A DNA stretch of 16,051 nt, from IMG/VR virus record IMGVR_UViG_2698536480_000003; one strand, written 5' to 3'. A program made the translations under genes and the position numbers. Below, in pieces: positions 2,027 through 16,051 of this stretch; positions within the stretch are counted from its first letter, which is position 1; each line of letters starts with the position of its first letter. The notes beneath the pieces were generated by a model. That model did not search any database. It worked only from the letters and a program-made list of their open reading frames with translations, and was not told the origin of the DNA. This DNA is from a virus. Its lineage: Duplodnaviria; Heunggongvirae; Uroviricota; Caudoviricetes.

Positions 2027-2231
2027 TCATTTTCACTTTTTTAAATCCAACGACAGACGGCTGGCATTTAAGTATTGTGAAATATTATCAAATGTAATCA
2101 TCATTGATTTACAAAAGATACATTTTGCCCCGAAAGGATTCATGTCAGAAACATCAAAAGATGATGTTCTATACTGGGAACCATGACAACACGGGCATCT
2201 AAAGTGAATATGGTTTGTAATATTGTCTACC

Positions 2232-2444
2232 TCAAAGCGCCACTACATGAACAGCGGCAGGACCTTTAGGTCCGTTCTCAATACCAAATTCAACTTCCTG
2301 ATTCTCAGTTAATGTTTTGAAATCGTTGCTCTGAATTGCTGAGAAATGGACAAACACATCTTTGCTGCCATCTTTCGGCGTGATGAAACCAAAACCTTTT
2401 TCAGGGTTAAACCATTTCACTAAACCAGTCATTTTGTTAGACAT
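2232..2444 (-). CDS. cspI: Cold-shock protein CspI (CspA family), 70 aa
   Basis: [70 protein letters not shown] with RNP1/RNP2 motifs; csp-type leader upstream (AAAGGUAAUAAUUAUG). Confidence 0.95.
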
Positions 2445-2806
2445 AATTATTACCTTTTGAAGAAATTAGCCCTTGGGCAGAATGGTCCGAAAAAAAATAT
2501 CAGAGAGAAAAACCAACAAGGAAATCTCAAGAGGTACAAATAATAAAATTATAACAATGACTGCTTCAGATAAATTTGTAACAAACCAGAACACCATTAA
2601 CGCATGATTAACCACCCATAGCAAGGATTACTTTTGTAAAGAAAAACACAGCAATGAAAGAATAGCTTTATTTATTAATAAAACGTGTCATTCTGATTAA
2701 GACCTTTTATCTTACCCTTAAGATTTCAGGAATTTTGGCTCATGGAAGAGTCCTTTTTATTTAAATTTTACATTCCGCGATGTAAATGTTCCGATTTAAT
2801 ATTACC

Positions 2807-3830
<1,024 letters not shown>

Positions 3831-3834
<4 letters not shown>

Positions 3835-4142
3835 AGATATTTATGATGAGGACGCTCGTGCTTATTGGCAGGATTTTCAATCTTAAAGGAGTACTGATGC
3901 TGCAGATAAGACTCAACTTTTTCTGACAATTTTTCTGCTACTTCCAGGAAGACTTGCCGGACGCTCCTTCTGGCTGCTGCCTCATAAAACTCCAGCGCAG
4001 CTCCTTCAACACGGTCCATGGCGACATCCAGGTCAAAAATTTCACCGTCAAAGCGTTCTTTGTCCTGTAAGGCTACAGTTACCGTAACTTTATTCTCAAA
4101 ATTACGGACTCCTTTCACAACCAGTTCATAGTCTTGAGTCAT
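3831..4142 (-). CDS. ydfR: DUF1327-family protein inside the lysis cassette, 103 aa
   Basis: ORF 3831..4142 with ATG start, sitting between holin and endolysin as in Qin. Confidence 0.75.
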
Positions 4143-4146
4143 TGGA

Positions 4147-4362
4147 TTACTCTCCTCTCGCAGCCTTACGCCTGTCTTCTTTAATCTTGAAATAAAGATT
4201 TGTCAGATACGTCAGCAGGCCAAAAACCAGGCTACCCAGCACACCGATTGCAGCCCACTGTGACGGAGTTACTTTATCGAGTAACTGCAATGCCCAGAAA
4301 CCAGCATTACCCGCCGATGTGCCATAGGCAACACCTGTTGTTAACTTATCCATTGATTTCAT
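4147..4362 (-). CDS. essQ: Class II holin / pinholin (phage 21 S21-like), 71 aa, with MKSM dual-start motif
   Basis: [71 protein letters not shown]: two transmembrane helices and a charged C-terminus. The track ORF extends upstream to 4437 from a non-ATG start. Confidence 0.9.
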
Positions 4363-4581
4363 ATCCTCACCCCGATGTACACGGATGGTGCAATATGTTT
4401 GAAAAGATCGGAGTCTACGGGGTAGTTTTGACAGCACACGTTGTTCTCAACGGCGCTAAAAAAACATACACATTAAAAATGTGGGTAATTATTTTGAAAG
4501 AAAGTCATATATAAAATAATAATACGAGAAATGTTTTCATATTTAGTGTACTGTATACGGCCATTTATACAGGAAAAGCCT

Positions 4582-4836: not shown

Positions 4837-5115
4837 GATTGTGGTGCTTTTTGTGGGAGTCATCCACTTACGCACTTTGTTTTGCCATGCCAGCAGTTAG
4901 CTTCTGCTGTAAAACTATTCATGCAGCAAACCTGCACTTCACCACAATGGTTAGCATACTTTTCCTGATTAAGATTTTGCCAAATATGCTAGCCATTGTT
5001 TCATGTATTGGACCTCCTTACTTTTTATTAAAGAGATCCAATATTCACTACTCTGTCCGTATCTCTACTCAGGCATCAGCCTTCTTCGTTATCGTATACA
5101 GACGAGCGATGAATT

Positions 5116-5331
5116 TTAATCAGTAATGATGACATTTGCTGCTGCAGGACCTTTAGCACCACTCTCTATAGAGAAGGTAACCTTTTGACCTTCAAATAAG
5201 GTTCGATAATTATCATTCTGAATCGCAGAAAAATGCACAAACACATCTTTACTACCATCAACAGGAGAAATAAAGCCGAAACCTTTATCAGCGTTAAACC
5301 ATTTTACTAAACCAGTCATTTTATTTGACAT
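5116..5331 (-). CDS. cspB: Cold-shock protein CspB (CspA family), 71 aa
   Basis: [71 protein letters not shown]; long leader upstream with cold-box-like and GCCGAAAGGC elements. Confidence 0.95.
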
Positions 5332-5631
5332 TCTACATTCCTTAACTTGAGCCTTTCGGCATAAATGGTTTGCATAACAGAAACGACTTCGTACTTAATT
5401 GGAGAGACTCAAAGAAGGAATAAGTGAATAACACCTGAAATGAGAACTGCTTTAGTAAACTACTTCGTATATCGTCTGTTCTTCAAACCGACGCAATCAT
5501 TAACGCATAGTTGAACATATGAAGCAATGTTTATTTTAGACATCCAGCCATCTTCAACCCCATCAAAAAACTATAGCTTTCTTCAGGAACGTGTGTATAG
5601 TGCGCCAAGTTATCAGTATTAAGGAATTTTT

Positions 5632-8895: not shown

Positions 8896-9051
8896 TTACT
8901 CCTCAGGTTCGTAAGCTGTGAAGACAGCGACCTCCGTCTGGCCGGTTCGGATTCGTACCTCGCAGAGGTCTTTCCTCGTTACCAGTGCCGTCACTATGAC
9001 GGTTAAACAGATGACGATCAGGGCGATTAACATCGCCTTTTGCTGCTTCAT
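8896..9051 (-). CDS. hokD: Hok-family type I toxin HokD (RelF), 51 aa
   Basis: Hand translation: MKQQKAMLIALIVICLTVIVTALVTRKDLCEVRIRTGQTEVAVFTAYEPEE*. Absent from the ORF track because it is under 60 aa. Confidence 0.9.
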   Translation of the reverse strand: MKQQKAMLIALIVICLTVIVTALVTRKDLCEVRIRTGQTEVAVFTAYEPEE

Positions 9052-10801: not shown

Positions 10802-12444
10802 CATTACGCGCACCGCCCAGACTGACTCAGCGCGTTTCTGGCATATCCCCGGTAAAACAAGTAACAAACCACCCGAAAATGAACACCAGAAACGCGACTT
10901 AAGAATCTACCCTATGAATGGATATGCACTCAACCGAATCGATCTTGGTTTCAATCTTTTTTATCGGGATCAGGCTTCTTTTTAGGTAACTTCGGGGGCT
11001 TAACTTGCTGATGACTTTGCGTTCGGCGCGTAAGCCAGGGATGGTCAGCTTTAGGTTTAACATAGTATTTTGAGCGTAAATCAATACGGGCATTATCCAC
11101 TCGTTCATGGACACTCTTTTCATCATCCAGTGGTATAGGCTCCGGGCCATCAACATACTTTTCCCAGCCCAGCGCTTTCCCGTCATACAGAACGTTAATT
11201 TCACCGTCAAAGTTCTCGCATACAGTAACAACCGAATGCCTAAGTCGATATCCCCGGCCCTCACTGCGTACCTGAAACGCACTGCTTTTGTACTGGAAAG
11301 TGAGATTTTTAGACAGAACGCGCTTCGCCTGTAGGCTGAAGATATAACCCAGTTCCTCTTCAGAATGGTGCACATCAAGATGAGCATTATCAGTAGTACG
11401 AGGCGACGTAGCGAACCGGTTGTTATAGGCTTCAATAAAGGTCGGCAACCATGCATTTGCTGTTTCAATATCACTGATATTCTGAAGCCGCATTTCTTTG
11501 ACCAGCCTGTCCTGTAGTGTCTGATTGGCGCGCTCTACCCGCCCTTTTGCCTGCGGGCTGTTGGCATGGATTGGCTCGATGCCCAGTGTCTTTATCGCAC
11601 GAGTGAACTGGGTCAGCTCACCTTCCCGCTCTGGGTTATTTACCCTGAATATACTGTGTCTATCAGAGTAGAGAGCGAGCGGTACGCCATGATCATTAAG
11701 GTAACCCCGGAGGGTTTCCATGTAAGCCCGGGTTGTTTCAGCAGGCACAAAACGCAACGCCATCAACGCACTGGTGGCATCATCAATGAAAACGATCAGT
11801 GTACATCTGGGGCCTCGATTTTCAAACCAGTCATGAGGTGAGCCATCAATCTGGATCAGTTCACCGTAAGATGGTCGTCGCATGCGGCGTTGATATATAC
11901 GGGCAATTTTACGACGGCGTTCACGCCATAACCCCTCTTCTATCATCCACTTTCTGAGAGTTTCAACGGATAAAGATAAACCGTGTATCTCGCGCAATTT
12001 TTCGCACGCAAACGTAGGTCCAAAATCAGCGTAACGGCCTTTGAGGAGTGAAATTACTGTTGCTCTGAATTCAGTAGAAAAGGAATTATTAGGACGCTTT
12101 CCACGTCGGTGGGAAACCAGACCAGAAGGCCCTTCATTTCTATACCGTTGCACCAGACGTTTAACCTGCCGAATAGAAATGCCAATGCGTGCCGCAGCTT
12201 GTTCCTGAATAATCTGAAGTCGGTGGAGTTCCTTATGACTCATCGTAACAGTCTCTTTGATCATGAAAAATCCCCCAGAGAATTGTCTGGGGACATTTTA
12301 GAATGGTTCAAAGGGGACATTACAGCTTGGTGTTAACAATAGCCTGCTTCTCCGTGCCTTTCGGCACGTAAGAGGCTAACCTACATGTGTCTAGCATGAA
12401 ATTGGCCTCAGATTAATGTTAAGCGTCTTGCAGGACGCGTAATG
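10802..12444 (-). mobile_element. Insertion sequence, about 1.64 kb, carrying a single DDE transposase; ends proposed from imperfect terminal inverted repeats (cattacgcg...)
   Basis: 10802-10826 (cattacgcgcaccgcccagac) versus the reverse complement of 12420-12444 (cattacgcgtcctgcaagac): 9 of 9 at the tip, then partial. No clean target-site duplication found, so the exact boundaries are uncertain. Confidence 0.4.
10951..12264 (-). CDS. DDE transposase with N-terminal helix-turn-helix and rve (integrase-core) domain, 437 aa; IS481/ISNCY(IS1202-group)-like
   Basis: N-terminus ELHRLQIIQEQAAARIGISIRQVKRLVQRYRNEGPSGLVSHRRGKRP; catalytic-core-like IQIDGSPHDW ... FIDDATSA ... ANSPQAKGRVER (D, D, E). 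Exact IS family not determined. Confidence 0.8.
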   Translation of the reverse strand: MIKETVTMSHKELHRLQIIQEQAAARIGISIRQVKRLVQRYRNEGPSGLVSHRRGKRPNNSFSTEFRATVISLLKGRYADFGPTFACEKLREIHGLSLSVETLRKWMIEEGLWRERRRKIARIYQRRMRRPSYGELIQIDGSPHDWFENRGPRCTLIVFIDDATSALMALRFVPAETTRAYMETLRGYLNDHGVPLALYSDRHSIFRVNNPEREGELTQFTRAIKTLGIEPIHANSPQAKGRVERANQTLQDRLVKEMRLQNISDIETANAWLPTFIEAYNNRFATSPRTTDNAHLDVHHSEEELGYIFSLQAKRVLSKNLTFQYKSSAFQVRSEGRGYRLRHSVVTVCENFDGEINVLYDGKALGWEKYVDGPEPIPLDDEKSVHERVDNARIDLRSKYYVKPKADHPWLTRRTQSHQQVKPPKLPKKKPDPDKKD

Positions 12445-12598
12445 TTAACTGGGGCTTTTCTCTATCTGCCGTTGGTGTCCATGCCCGAGGCAGATAGCCT
12501 CAAGCGCCCGCAGTCATTCTACTTAACTAAGATTTCCCCGCAAACCGTTTTTGTCCAGCACAGTAAATATCCAACTAAACCAATGGAGTTCGCTGTAT

Positions 12599-12778
12599 TT
12601 ACCGCCAGTATTCAATGCACATGACCGCCATGAACACCCCTAAAAAAAGGGCATTTATATATCCAAATATTAATATCAAAACATCAACTTTTTCCATATA
12701 CCTTGCTGTGAAGATGATGGGCATACATGATGCGAACAACCAGAACGCAACAAACAAAAACTGCAATGCGTTTTTCAT
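12599..12778 (-). CDS. Small predicted two-helix membrane protein, 59 aa
   Basis: MKNALQFLFVAFWLFASCMPIIFTARYMEKVDVLILIFGYINALFLGVFMAVMCIEYWR; AGGAGG Shine-Dalgarno 4 nt upstream of the ATG at 12778. The track ORF 12599..12817 starts at an upstream GTG. Confidence 0.5.
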   Translation of the reverse strand: MKNALQFLFVAFWLFASCMPIIFTARYMEKVDVLILIFGYINALFLGVFMAVMCIEYWR

Positions 12779-13032
12779 TATTCCTCCTACAATCAATGTG
12801 CAATTACATTTAAACACACCTCAATTTGGCCGGACATATAAATATCTAAACCAGAAAAAATCACTTACATAGCGTTACAAACTCTTTAGTCTAAAGGTTC
12901 ATCGTAAAACATTCCCCATACTTATCAGTCCGTTCCGCGCCAGGTAGCTCATTGCCTTATCTGGCAACCTGTAATCAGGTTTCCGCTTTTTCAGTTGGCT
13001 GGTCGTTTAACCGACATAGTTAATCCATTAAT

Positions 13033-13320
13033 CTAGTTGCCGGATGTTGGTGGATTTTCGCGTTTTAGTTGTTCATAAAAGTGCACAGCTTTAACCAGTT
13101 CTTCTGATGTAACTGGGACTGGTGAGGCAGTGAATAAGGCCTGAATTTGATAGTTCGGCCTGTCGTTACAATCCTCTTTTTTCGGTACATATTTCCAGTC
13201 ACCAGACCACTACTTCCCCTGAAAGTCCGTAACGCCTTTTTTCACGTAGCGATATCGCCATGCCACTGGTTTTGCTTGCCCCGCCGTTTCATGCCCTTCC
13301 TGATAATTAATCTCGCTCAT
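13033..13320 (-). pseudogene. Accessory ORF of about 95 codons interrupted by a single in-frame TAG (at 13210-13212)
   Basis: MSEINYQEGHETAGQAKPVAWRYRYVKKGVTDFQGK*WSGDWKYVPKKEDCNDRPNYQIQALFTASPVPVTSEELVKAVHFYEQLKRENPPTSGN*; the frame is intact on both sides of the TAG. Confidence 0.4.
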
Positions 13321-13382
13321 TCATCGCCCCACTCATCACAATATGCTTCGACCGGAGTTTTTCCCGCTTCATAGTCATCACG

Positions 13383-13508
13383 CTAGGATTCGACATCAGC
13401 AGCACTTCCACCGCGTAACTCACCATAGTCCATTAATAGTTCATCCCGCTCTTCAAAACTGATGTTATATTTAGCTGAACAAAAATCAGCCACTTTGTTC
13501 TTCCTCAT
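13383..13508 (-). CDS. Candidate small protein, 41 aa (MRKNKVADFCSAKYNISFEERDELLMDYGELRGGSAADVES)
   Basis: ATG-initiated minus-strand ORF read by hand; in tandem with the neighbouring small ORFs; no family recognised. Confidence 0.25.
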   Translation of the reverse strand: MRKNKVADFCSAKYNISFEERDELLMDYGELRGGSAADVES

Positions 13509-13840: not shown

Positions 13841-14287
13841 TTATCGTTTTTTCCCTGTTCGTTGACAGATAACAGGTTTTCTGTCTGTCAGTGCCAGAAT
13901 CTGGCTTACCGGTATTTGCGTTTCATTCCATTAAAAAATCAGAACGCCGTGCGGCCTCAACACCCGAAAGGCTTCTTTAAATCTCTGTCGCGAATCATCA
14001 CGCCAGGCATCTTTATTCAGCCGTCCATATTTCTTTCCCATCCAGGCGTTATCACCAACACTCTCAAGATGCGGAGGGTCTAATACAACCATCGAAAAAG
14101 ATGCGTCTGCAAATGATAATGCACGAAAATCTGCGATAATGTCAGGGCTGATAATCAAGCGTCTCCCATTGCGTAATGTGTATCCTTCTTTTCTGATATC
14201 GCTGAATATCGCCCGTTCGTCAGACTTATCGAACCAGAACATGCGGCTGCCACAGCACATATCAAGAATGGTTGCCGGTGCACTCAC
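13841..14287 (-). pseudogene. Small SAM-dependent methyltransferase (motif I LDMCCGS followed by DPPH, RsmD/gamma-like order), about 150 codons, interrupted by one in-frame TAA at 13931-13933
   Basis: Track ORF 13931..14287 (118 aa) ends ...RPHGVLIF*, and the same frame continues WNETQIPVSQILALTDRKPVICQRTGKKR* to 13841. Start is GTG overlapping the upstream ORF stop (GTGA). Confidence 0.55.
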
Positions 14288-14454: not shown

Positions 14455-14598
14455 CTTTGCCCTCGAGAGTTTTTTGCGGGCGTTTTGCCAGTCCTTACGC
14501 GCCTGTTCAGAGGGGAATAACCCGTATCCGAAGAGCAGTTAATTGCGCTGAAAGGAATAAAAAAAGGTACGTTAAAAAAGGCCCGGGAAAAATCGTTT

Positions 14599-14770: not shown

Positions 14771-16051
14771 ATGAAATATCCGACAGGCGTGGAAAACCAT
14801 GGAGGGAAATTACGTATCTGGTTTGTTTATAAAGACGTAAGAGTCAGGGAAAATCTGGGGGTTCCTGACACAGCAAAAAACAGGCGCGTTGCAGGTGAAC
14901 TACGCTCCTCTGTTTGTTACGCAATAAAAACTGGTGTTTTCGACTATGCAAAACAGTTTCCCTCCTCACGCAATCTGGAAAAATTTGGTGAGGCCCGACA
15001 AGATTTAACCATAAAAGAACTGGCTGAAAAATTTCTGGCACTGAAAGAAACTGAAGTCGCCAAAACATCACTCAACACATACCGTGCCGTCATCAAAAAT
15101 ATCCTGAGCATAATCGGTGAAAAAAATCTTGCCTCATCGATTAATAAAGAAAAATTACTGGAGGTTCGTAAAGAGTTACTGACTGGATACCAGATCCCCA
15201 AAAGTAACTATATTGTTACACAACCAGGGAGATCGGCTGTAACTGTAAATAATTACATGACAAATCTTAACGCCGTGTTCCAGTTTGGTGTTGATAACGG
15301 TTACCTGGCAGATAATCCGTTTAAGGGGATCTCGCCATTAAAGGAATCAAGAACCATTCCGGATCCTCTTTCGCGGGAAGAATTTATCCGTCTTATCGAT
15401 GCGTGCAGAAATCAGCAAGCAAAAAATTTATGGTGTGTTTCTGTTTATACTGGAGTTCGCCCTGGTGAGCTGTGTGCACTTGGATGGGAGGACATAGATC
15501 TGAAAAATGGAACAATGATGATCAGGAGAAATTTAGCAAAAAACCGTTTCACGGTACCAAAAACACAGGCGGGAACCAATCGGGTCATTCATCTTATTAA
15601 GCCAGCAATCGACGCTCTCCGGAGTCAGATGACATTAACGAGACTGAGCAAAGAGCATATCATTGATGTTCACCTCAGAGAGTATGGCAGAACAGAAAAA
15701 CAAAAATGCACCTTTGTTTTTCAACCTGAAGTGTCAGCGAGAGTAAAAAATTATGGTGACCATTTTACCGTTGACTCAATAAGGCAGATGTGGGACGCAG
15801 CGATAAAACGTGCCGGACTCCGCCATCGAAAATCATATCAGTCGAGACATACTTATGCCTGCTGGTCGCTGACAGCTGGTGCTAACCCGGCATTTATAGC
15901 AAACCAGATGGGCCATGCAGATGCGCAAATGGTATTTCAGGTATACGGAAAATGGATGTCTGAAAACAATAATGCACAGGTAGCTTTGTTAAATACACAG
16001 TTAAGCGAGTTTGCCCCAACCATGCCCCATAACGAAGCAATGAAAAATTAA
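14771..16051 (+). CDS. int: Tyrosine recombinase / phage integrase with N-terminal arm-binding domain, 426 aa (431 aa if started at ATG 14756)
   Basis: MKYPTGVENHGGKLRIWFVYKDVRVRENLG (arm-type N-terminus like Rac-type integrases), and a C-terminal catalytic region ...HRKSYQSRHTYACWSLTAGANPAFIANQMGHADAQMVFQVYGKW. The stop codon is the last three bases of the window. Confidence 0.85.
   Translation: MKYPTGVENHGGKLRIWFVYKDVRVRENLGVPDTAKNRRVAGELRSSVCYAIKTGVFDYAKQFPSSRNLEKFGEARQDLTIKELAEKFLALKETEVAKTSLNTYRAVIKNILSIIGEKNLASSINKEKLLEVRKELLTGYQIPKSNYIVTQPGRSAVTVNNYMTNLNAVFQFGVDNGYLADNPFKGISPLKESRTIPDPLSREEFIRLIDACRNQQAKNLWCVSVYTGVRPGELCALGWEDIDLKNGTMMIRRNLAKNRFTVPKTQAGTNRVIHLIKPAIDALRSQMTLTRLSKEHIIDVHLREYGRTEKQKCTFVFQPEVSARVKNYGDHFTVDSIRQMWDAAIKRAGLRHRKSYQSRHTYACWSLTAGANPAFIANQMGHADAQMVFQVYGKWMSENNNAQVALLNTQLSEFAPTMPHNEAMKN

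Follow-up and report, generated by a model that had tools for sequence, protein, structure and literature searches.

T4 Imm, HK97 gp15 and P22 SieA are short, hydrophobic exclusion proteins of phages and prophages that reside in the inner membrane and are encoded at accessory positions. A 59-codon open reading frame, here termed ORF59, is located in a stretch of DNA of 16,051 nt (IMG/VR virus record IMGVR_UViG_2698536480_000003), the whole of which was analyzed and is referred to as the window. The ORF59 protein is like these exclusion proteins in size, hydrophobicity and accessory position, and this likeness is one of description; in contrast to them, it matches no profile family, and its gene shows no recognizable promoter and terminator of its own such as a classical moron has. 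Small inner-membrane exclusion proteins of phages appear to be the most plausible analogy for the way in which ORF59 might act.

Several other groups of small proteins come close to ORF59 in one respect or another. The Hok/Gef toxins (PF01848) are likewise small hydrophobic membrane peptides, and hok sequences adjoin ORF59 in two diverged loci. Unlike them, ORF59 has two helices instead of one, contains no Hok/Gef domain (Pfam, E ≤ 10), comes with neither an antisense RNA promoter nor an occluding mRNA fold, and belongs to a separate mosaic module. The class II holins, i.e., pinholins (S21, two transmembrane helices, about 70 aa), share with ORF59 the two helices, the size of about 60–70 aa and the lambdoid phage background. 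However, the C-terminal tail of ORF59 beyond the second helix consists of four residues, EYWR, with net charge 0, and is thus not highly charged, and 8 kb separate the gene from the lysis cassette, which has a holin gene, essD; ORF59 is probably not a holin. With the small phage lipoproteins Cor, Llp and Rz1 it shares a lipobox-like motif with an invariant Cys18, but it shows no sequence similarity to them and carries a hydrophobic stretch after the cysteine as well as a second transmembrane helix. Finally, AcrZ, MgrB, SafA and MgtS are small regulators of the host that bind a larger membrane protein by way of a conserved helix face; their size and this mode of action would fit the G39/A43/G47/N42 face of ORF59, whereas these are single-helix proteins of the core chromosome to which no homology of ORF59 was found.

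Reading Frame and Translation Signals of ORF59

The elements from which ORF59 would be expressed are the following:

12599-12778, minus strand: ORF59 coding sequence, 59 codons and TAA, for a two-helix membrane protein (from its translation, the paralog and dN/dS)
12788-12783, minus strand: Shine-Dalgarno sequence AGGAGG, followed by the 4-nt spacer AATA and the ATG at 12778-12776
12779-12898, minus strand: conserved untranslated stretch between the upstream pseudogene and the ATG, with no recognizable σ70 promoter

The reverse complement of 12599-12778 runs from ATG to TAA and is translated into the 59-aa protein MKNALQFLFVAFWLFASCMPIIFTARYMEKVDVLILIFGYINALFLGVFMAVMCIEYWR; around the start, the minus strand reads TAGGAGGAATAATG. 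The AGGAGG sequence that the preliminary description had placed 4 nt ahead of the ATG was confirmed on the minus strand. Four copies of this hexamer are present in the 16-kb window when both strands are counted, and only the copy of ORF59 precedes an ATG and a long ORF, in agreement with the earlier rating of this site as one of the strongest translation signals of the window. The length of ORF59 by itself is not beyond chance, as an ATG-initiated ORF of at least 59 codons appeared in 33% of the dinucleotide shuffles of 12400-12950, and in 1.7% of them when a loose Shine-Dalgarno-like 4-mer was also required. Many GenBank entries use an in-frame GTG at 12817, which would make ORF59 72 aa long. 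The 59-aa form is right, since the GTG start puts the Shine-Dalgarno sequence within the coding sequence and the paralog, described below, allows no upstream extension.

A Diverged Paralog and Long-Term Selection

The argument that ORF59 is a gene is carried by a second 59-aa protein of E. coli, MRKILMYLCISIWIVISCVPIILTSEYLTEASIMALMFGHANALCIGVFISIIYIECWR, which is 41% identical to ORF59 at the amino acid level over the same length and without gaps. HMMER run exhaustively over 1.84e9 proteins recovered this paralog (E = 1.2e-8), and tblastn against plasmid records did so at 3e-10. The start and stop codons of both genes coincide. At the nucleotide level they are 59% identical, with 34, 42 and 28 matches of 59 at the first, second and third codon positions, respectively, and the comparison gives pN of 0.34, pS of 0.72 and dN/dS of about 0.19 (Fisher p = 9e-5). 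In blastn of the two loci the similarity is nearly limited to the ORF, reaching about 22 nt beyond the stop codon, and the sense frame is the sole frame that is open in both. The same-length paralog, the dN/dS of about 0.19, the near-confinement of similarity to the ORF and the open sense frame together indicate that ORF59 is a real gene. Judged from the codon substitutions that separate the two branches, it has been under long-term purifying selection.

The Host Prophage and the Position of ORF59

The sequence of the window is that of a lambdoid prophage of E. coli which resembles Qin and has decayed, and many complete genomes match it with 100% identity (a window coordinate equals the coordinate in locus L003 minus 501). 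The parts of the prophage that matter for ORF59 are listed below:

2807-4437: lysis cassette rzpQ-rrrQ-ydfR-essD, including its own holin gene essD
10951-12264, minus strand: ISNCY-family transposase ORF, 437 aa, intact, annotated by RefSeq on identical DNA (Pfam HTH_28/29/32, weak rve_3)
12899-13320: frameshifted hypothetical gene, a pseudogene, upstream of ORF59
13931-14287: SAM methyltransferase, followed by a truncated DUF977 gene
14771-16051: integrase; the excisionase/integrase end is joined directly to the truncated DUF977 gene

The order of genes begins with ynfO, ydfO, gnsB, ynfN/R/Q and cspI. The lysis cassette is followed by ynfU, cspB, cspF, ydfT (the Q antiterminator), ydfU and rem, and next by hokD (8896-9051), relE, relB, ydfV, flxA, the ISNCY transposase ORF and ORF59. 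A DUF7167 pseudogene with an internal stop lies beyond the pseudogene at 12899-13320. Rfam matches to the cspA thermoregulator at 5100-5492 and 2205-2590 (both on the minus strand; 159 and 113 bits, respectively) span the 5′ leaders of cspB and cspI, which are cold-shock genes of the prophage.

ORF59 is co-oriented with the early-right genes of the phage. In phages PhiR42_1 and vB_EcoS-640R1, which are better preserved, it is preceded by cro-like, cII-like, replication, DUF977 and small nin-type genes, while hok, rem, ydfU and Q come after it. The accessory location given in the preliminary description is thus borne out, the place being the nin-like region of a lambdoid prophage. The prophage of the window has itself undergone a deletion, whose junction lies at about 14524-14536; the replication genes, ydaT, dicC, dicA, ydfABC, dicB, ydfD and the exonuclease gene were lost there, and they are still present in ATCC 8739. 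As a result, this copy of the prophage is without the immunity region and the PR promoter. A different deletion, between ydfW and ydfX, is found in K-12 Qin, and ORF59 was lost with it. Absence from otherwise identical prophages had been named in the preliminary description as a point that would speak against the gene; this point applies in part, as K-12 Qin lacks ORF59, through a larger deletion. The K-12 case indicates that ORF59 is dispensable, which is what would be expected of an accessory gene.

The insertion sequence that had been noticed beside ORF59 is real: the transposase ORF belongs to an ISNCY-family element whose left end is at 12338, and 260 nt separate it from the end of ORF59. 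No terminal inverted repeat was found at the far end of the element. In ATCC 8739 and BUCT2930 the transposase is marked by RefSeq as a truncated pseudogene, and the K-12 'gene' ydfW (49 aa) corresponds to the 3′ end of the transposase frame.

Transcription and Translation of ORF59

A scan of both strands of 12100-13400, which weak promoters would escape, yielded no σ70-like promoter, and no terminator was found on the strand of ORF59 between ORF59 and the hok promoter. Given the shared orientation and the lack of a recognizable promoter or terminator of its own, ORF59 is probably transcribed with the early-right operon. The folding energy of the 5′ region of ORF59 is unremarkable in comparison with shuffled sequences (z = 0.48), and the Shine-Dalgarno sequence is unpaired in the centroid structure. 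The simplest reading is that ORF59 would be a delayed-early gene, transcribed from PR and efficiently translated; a weak local promoter may exist in addition. In the window PR is gone and no local promoter was found, so this particular copy of ORF59 may be silent.

Two other features of the upstream region were considered and set aside. An apparent mosaic boundary about 200 nt upstream of ORF59 proved to be an artefact of a 57-nt indel, as the homology runs on into the upstream gene, and an antisense RNA at ORF59 was rejected after the promoter scan had yielded no site on either strand. A terminator-like hairpin with a T-run is present at 12966-12981 on the plus strand, i.e., upstream of and antisense to ORF59, where it could halt read-through from the Sok promoter. 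This hairpin is not conserved in vB_EcoS-640R1, in which a 57-nt deletion takes the T-run.

Architecture of the ORF59 Protein and Its Proposed Role

The ORF59 protein is strongly hydrophobic (GRAVY 1.27). In Kyte-Doolittle plots with 19-residue windows it exceeds 2 at residues ~4-25 and ~31-55, and AlphaFold2 models helices at 3-24 and 31-58 with a mean pLDDT of 82.6. Translation, hydropathy peaks and modeled helices agree with one another, and the description of the product as a 59-aa two-helix membrane protein is upheld. The connector had been placed in the FTARYMEK region, which also holds: in the AlphaFold2 model the two helices are joined by ARYMEK.

The residues that are invariant in both branches are M1, L5, L8, W13, S17, C18, P20, I21, I22 and T24 in the first half of the protein and L36, F38, G39, N42, A43, L44, F49, I55, E56, W58 and R59 in the second, with G47 being almost invariant. 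They form conserved blocks, namely W13, S17-C18-x-P20-I-I-x-T24, G39-x3-A43-x3-G47 beside N42, and the C-terminal I-E-x-W-R. A small-residue ladder of the GxxxAxxxG type next to an asparagine is a mark of a tight helix-packing face in membrane proteins. The conserved positions, including the G39/A43/G47 ladder, point to tight helix-helix packing, whether between copies of the protein in a homo-oligomer or with a larger partner in the membrane, and ORF59 may therefore oligomerize or pack through the conserved face of its second transmembrane helix. In the paralog the N-terminus has a charge of +2 and the loop is acidic and without positive charges, a pattern that fits an N-in, loop-out, C-in arrangement. 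The most likely topology would have both ends of ORF59 in the cytoplasm and the short loop ARYMEKVD in the periplasm.

From these elements a role can be sketched. ORF59 would be transcribed with the early-right operon, and its strong and unoccluded ribosome-binding site would ensure efficient translation. The product would insert into the inner membrane as a helical hairpin with its N- and C-termini in the cytoplasm and its loop in the periplasm, and the conserved face of the second helix would pack as a homo-oligomer or onto a larger membrane protein. In this form ORF59 might act on the host envelope, for instance as a gate or a block for a process at the inner membrane, with the uptake of DNA from rival phages as one example, or it might modulate a membrane complex of the host. 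That ORF59 is a real gene for an inner-membrane hairpin, transcribed with the early operon and serving the phage as an accessory envelope factor, is as a whole judged to have a somewhat better than even chance of being correct. The biological role within it, that of an oligomerizing accessory factor of the phage in the inner membrane, is a guess by analogy that is held with low confidence.

A different fate of the same protein, possible though unlikely, would be that of a small lipoprotein, in which residues 1-17 act as a type II signal peptide and cleavage before Cys18 leaves a lipidated peptide of 42 aa with the second helix. Both subfamilies satisfy the PROSITE lipoprotein rule PS51257 (LFVAFWLFASC and LCISIWIVISC), having K/R within the first seven residues, an uncharged h-region and the sequence LFAS/C or IVIS/C with the cysteine at position 18; S17 and C18 are invariant and lie in the best-conserved block of ORF59, and the distribution of charges fits N-in. 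The rule is, however, known to match transmembrane helices, and the residues after the cysteine, MPIIFT or VPIILT, are hydrophobic and continue the 21-residue helix of the AlphaFold model. Hydrophobic residues in this place are atypical of the N-termini of mature lipoproteins. The membrane hairpin is the preferred form of the ORF59 protein.

The hok/sok Neighbor and the Question of Toxicity

Downstream of ORF59 the window contains a hok/sok locus that has been split into two parts, and the features involved are:

8896-9051, minus strand: hokD coding sequence, which together with the leader behind ORF59 makes up one hok locus
about 12339-12509, minus strand: orphaned hok mRNA leader with the mok 5′ end and the sok region (Rfam RF01794 'sok', 102 bits, E = 1.2e-22)
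12516-12543, minus strand: putative hok promoter TTGCGG-16 nt-TAGAAT, 56 nt past the ORF59 stop codon, recognized by reading the sequence and lying below the threshold of the scan

Alignment with intact loci places the point at which the hok-derived sequence behind ORF59 breaks off inside the hok start codon (GGCTAT/TGTTAAC, 12339/12338). When one whole hok locus is used as the query, it aligns in two pieces, 12599-12339 and 9065-8801, which identifies hokD and the leader behind ORF59 as the two separated halves of a single hok/sok locus. A direct repeat of 15 nt, GGAGAAGCAGGCTAT, is present at 12353-12339 and at 9064-9050, and it flanks the 3274-nt (~3.3-kb) segment that separates the halves and contains relE, relB, ydfV, flxA and the ISNCY element. 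The hokD (relF) gene of the relBEF operon is known as an 'orphan' hok without mok and sok; in the window, the promoter, leader and sok are located 3.3 kb away from it.

Among 85 related loci, 44 have an intact hok about 250 nt downstream of ORF59, and the paralog likewise precedes a hok 3′ remnant. As it is seen at the loci of both ORF59 and the paralog, the adjacency to hok is old. A single ORF59-hok cassette was nevertheless rejected, since the homology with other phages that carry hok does not start before the hok promoter. The hok/sok unit stands behind unrelated cargo in phages Tritos, PPompW and Rac-SA53, and the homology begins 42-78 nt past the position of the ORF59 stop codon, at the hok promoter. 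Moreover, ORF59 is present in only 3 of 80 Hok-bearing phage records, and the splitting or loss of hok has left it uninterrupted. The unrelated cargo, the small share of records and the survival of ORF59 after the loss of hok suggest that the adjacency is probably a matter of synteny and not of function.

These observations bear on the reading of ORF59 as a membrane-damaging toxin or an abortive-infection effector, possibly a modulator or immunity partner of Hok, which is rather doubtful. The protein is small, it has the GRAVY of a highly hydrophobic peptide and a glycine-zipper-like GxxxAxxxG with a buried Asn, and hok or its remnant follows the gene in two loci that have diverged to 41% identity, with hok intact in more than half of the ORF59 loci counted above. 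With 59 aa and two hydrophobic segments ORF59 also falls within the size and hydrophobicity range used for type I toxins (<60 aa). Against this stand the independence of hok/sok as a mosaic module and the rarity of the pair among Hok-bearing phages, just described, together with the free and strong Shine-Dalgarno sequence and the lack of an antisense promoter, which would be unexpected for an unguarded potent toxin; neither a Hok/Gef nor a PADLOC match was obtained. As to a type I antitoxin RNA, no σ70-like site was recognized in 12100-13400, and the only RNA family match nearby is the sok/hok leader downstream. Sequestration of the Shine-Dalgarno sequence or of the mRNA by structure is absent from ORF59, as the centroid structure and the z-score given above indicate. 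On these sequence features ORF59 is unlikely to be a classical type I toxin.

The preliminary description had suggested superinfection exclusion, abortive infection or membrane toxicity as functions. Overall, the analysis speaks neither for nor against these functions: PADLOC gave zero matches, the features of a type I toxin are absent, and no promoter of its own was recognized. The latter point is relevant because exclusion in a lysogen requires expression in the lysogen, while no promoter of ORF59 itself is recognizable and the PR of the window is deleted. A low probability is given to the specific proposal that ORF59 and the paralog found next to ttcA represent a new single-gene membrane effector of prophages, acting in exclusion, in abortive infection or as a Hok modulator, and that the adjacency to hok is functional. 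Taken together, ORF59 and the paralog are carried by roughly one third to one half of E. coli genomes, and if the effector reading is true, this would be a very common accessory function. If ORF59 is without a phenotype, it would be one more conserved prophage ORFan.

Variation among Close Copies

The close copies of ORF59 are uninformative on its coding status, because they are always at least 95% identical at the nucleotide level. Contigs of viral, genomic and metagenomic origin supplied 164 full-length copies, of which 163 are uninterrupted. The 164 copies contain 8 variable sites, one synonymous and seven conservative nonsynonymous (A16V, V31I, I37M, Y40H, L44I, M53T and Y57C), and no signal of short-term purifying selection on the protein was found among them. 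ORF59 is less polymorphic than its immediate flanks, with 5 sites in 180 nt in comparison with 17 in 201 nt (p = 0.026), and it is intact while neighboring genes are pseudogenes.

The sole interrupted copy (L088 2826-3368, E. coli ECMA0423, CP178302.1) has a mutated Shine-Dalgarno sequence and several frameshifts. It shows 32 gaps in 561 nt, in coding and non-coding DNA alike and often in homopolymers; in view of this pattern genuine decay is no more probable than a faulty assembly, and the copy was left out as evidence of decay.

One may ask whether the ORF59 of the window is a once-functional, now unexpressed passenger of a decaying prophage, kept by its shortness and by the youth of its lineage. 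The neighborhood is clearly damaged, with the upstream gene frameshifted, the DUF7167 gene interrupted by an internal stop, hok split and the immunity region deleted. The scan for a promoter was negative, copies that are all at least 95% identical have had little time for decay, the changes within the subfamily are mostly nonsynonymous, and K-12 lost the gene with no known consequence. Yet ORF59 varies significantly less than the DNA on either side of it, and the paralog has stayed intact in 1045 genomes amid fragments of integrase, hok and sitD; the passenger reading is regarded as improbable.

Distribution, Relatives and Annotation

A search of 5426 complete E. coli genomes detected ORF59 in 1568 (29%), throughout with at least 95% nucleotide identity, and the paralog in 1045 (a further 19%) with at least 99% identity. 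ATCC 8739 and EC958 are among the strains that carry ORF59. No relatives beyond the two Escherichia/Shigella branches were found in a word-indexed search of 5.8e9 proteins, performed with the single sequence and with a profile of the two branches. Likewise, these two branches were all that was recovered by the exhaustive HMMER search of 1.84e9 representatives and by scanning translated contigs from viruses, genomes and metagenomes. One Klebsiella oxytoca plasmid record is 97% identical. Profile searches with ORF59 in Pfam, NCBIfam, PHROGs and PADLOC at E ≤ 10 gave zero matches, a sequence profile search of the PDB gave nothing, and Foldseek comparison of the model with BFVD and PDB returned generic hairpins only (E > 0.9). 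The protein, whose family the preliminary description could not recognize, is thus without a described family in the collections just named.

ORF59 is already in databases, solely as an uncharacterized hypothetical protein, with entries that name it 'hypothetical protein' or 'membrane protein'. In both searches of E. coli genomes no RefSeq annotation underlies ORF59 or the paralog among the matches listed. A literature search with exact peptide strings of ORF59 gave no matches, and neither a preprint on Hok diversity nor the main text of a CFT073 Ribo-seq preprint mentions the gene. Small membrane proteins are systematically missed by genome annotation, and ORF59 with its paralog is a concrete case; once the family is annotated, transposon, Ribo-seq and proteomic data could be examined for it.

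In some phage records another frame has taken the place of ORF59:

12615-12872, plus strand: shadow ORF of 85 codons, not a gene, annotated in phage records instead of ORF59

That the real gene is this plus-strand ORF can practically be dismissed: although gene callers picked it in PV340562 and ON470612 as 'hypothetical protein' or 'hornerin', it has no Shine-Dalgarno sequence before its ATG, it encodes a low-complexity, N-, K- and T-rich product that matches no family, and the corresponding frame has two stops in the paralog, where no antisense ORF is listed. The annotation of the shadow ORF in these GenBank records, at 10959-11210 of PV340562 and 23105-23356 of ON470612, once under the name 'hornerin', is probably a propagating error.

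The paralog resides in a prophage-remnant islet of about 2.3 kb between ttcA and uspF, in the Rac attachment region, where its neighbors are an integrase fragment, the hok 3′ remnant and sitD fragments. Its carriers include NU14, clone D i2 and a Nissle-derived strain. At L089 5001-5180 the paralog comes from an E. coli KE48 'plasmid' record that is really a chromosomal segment, and it is also present in L090-L097.
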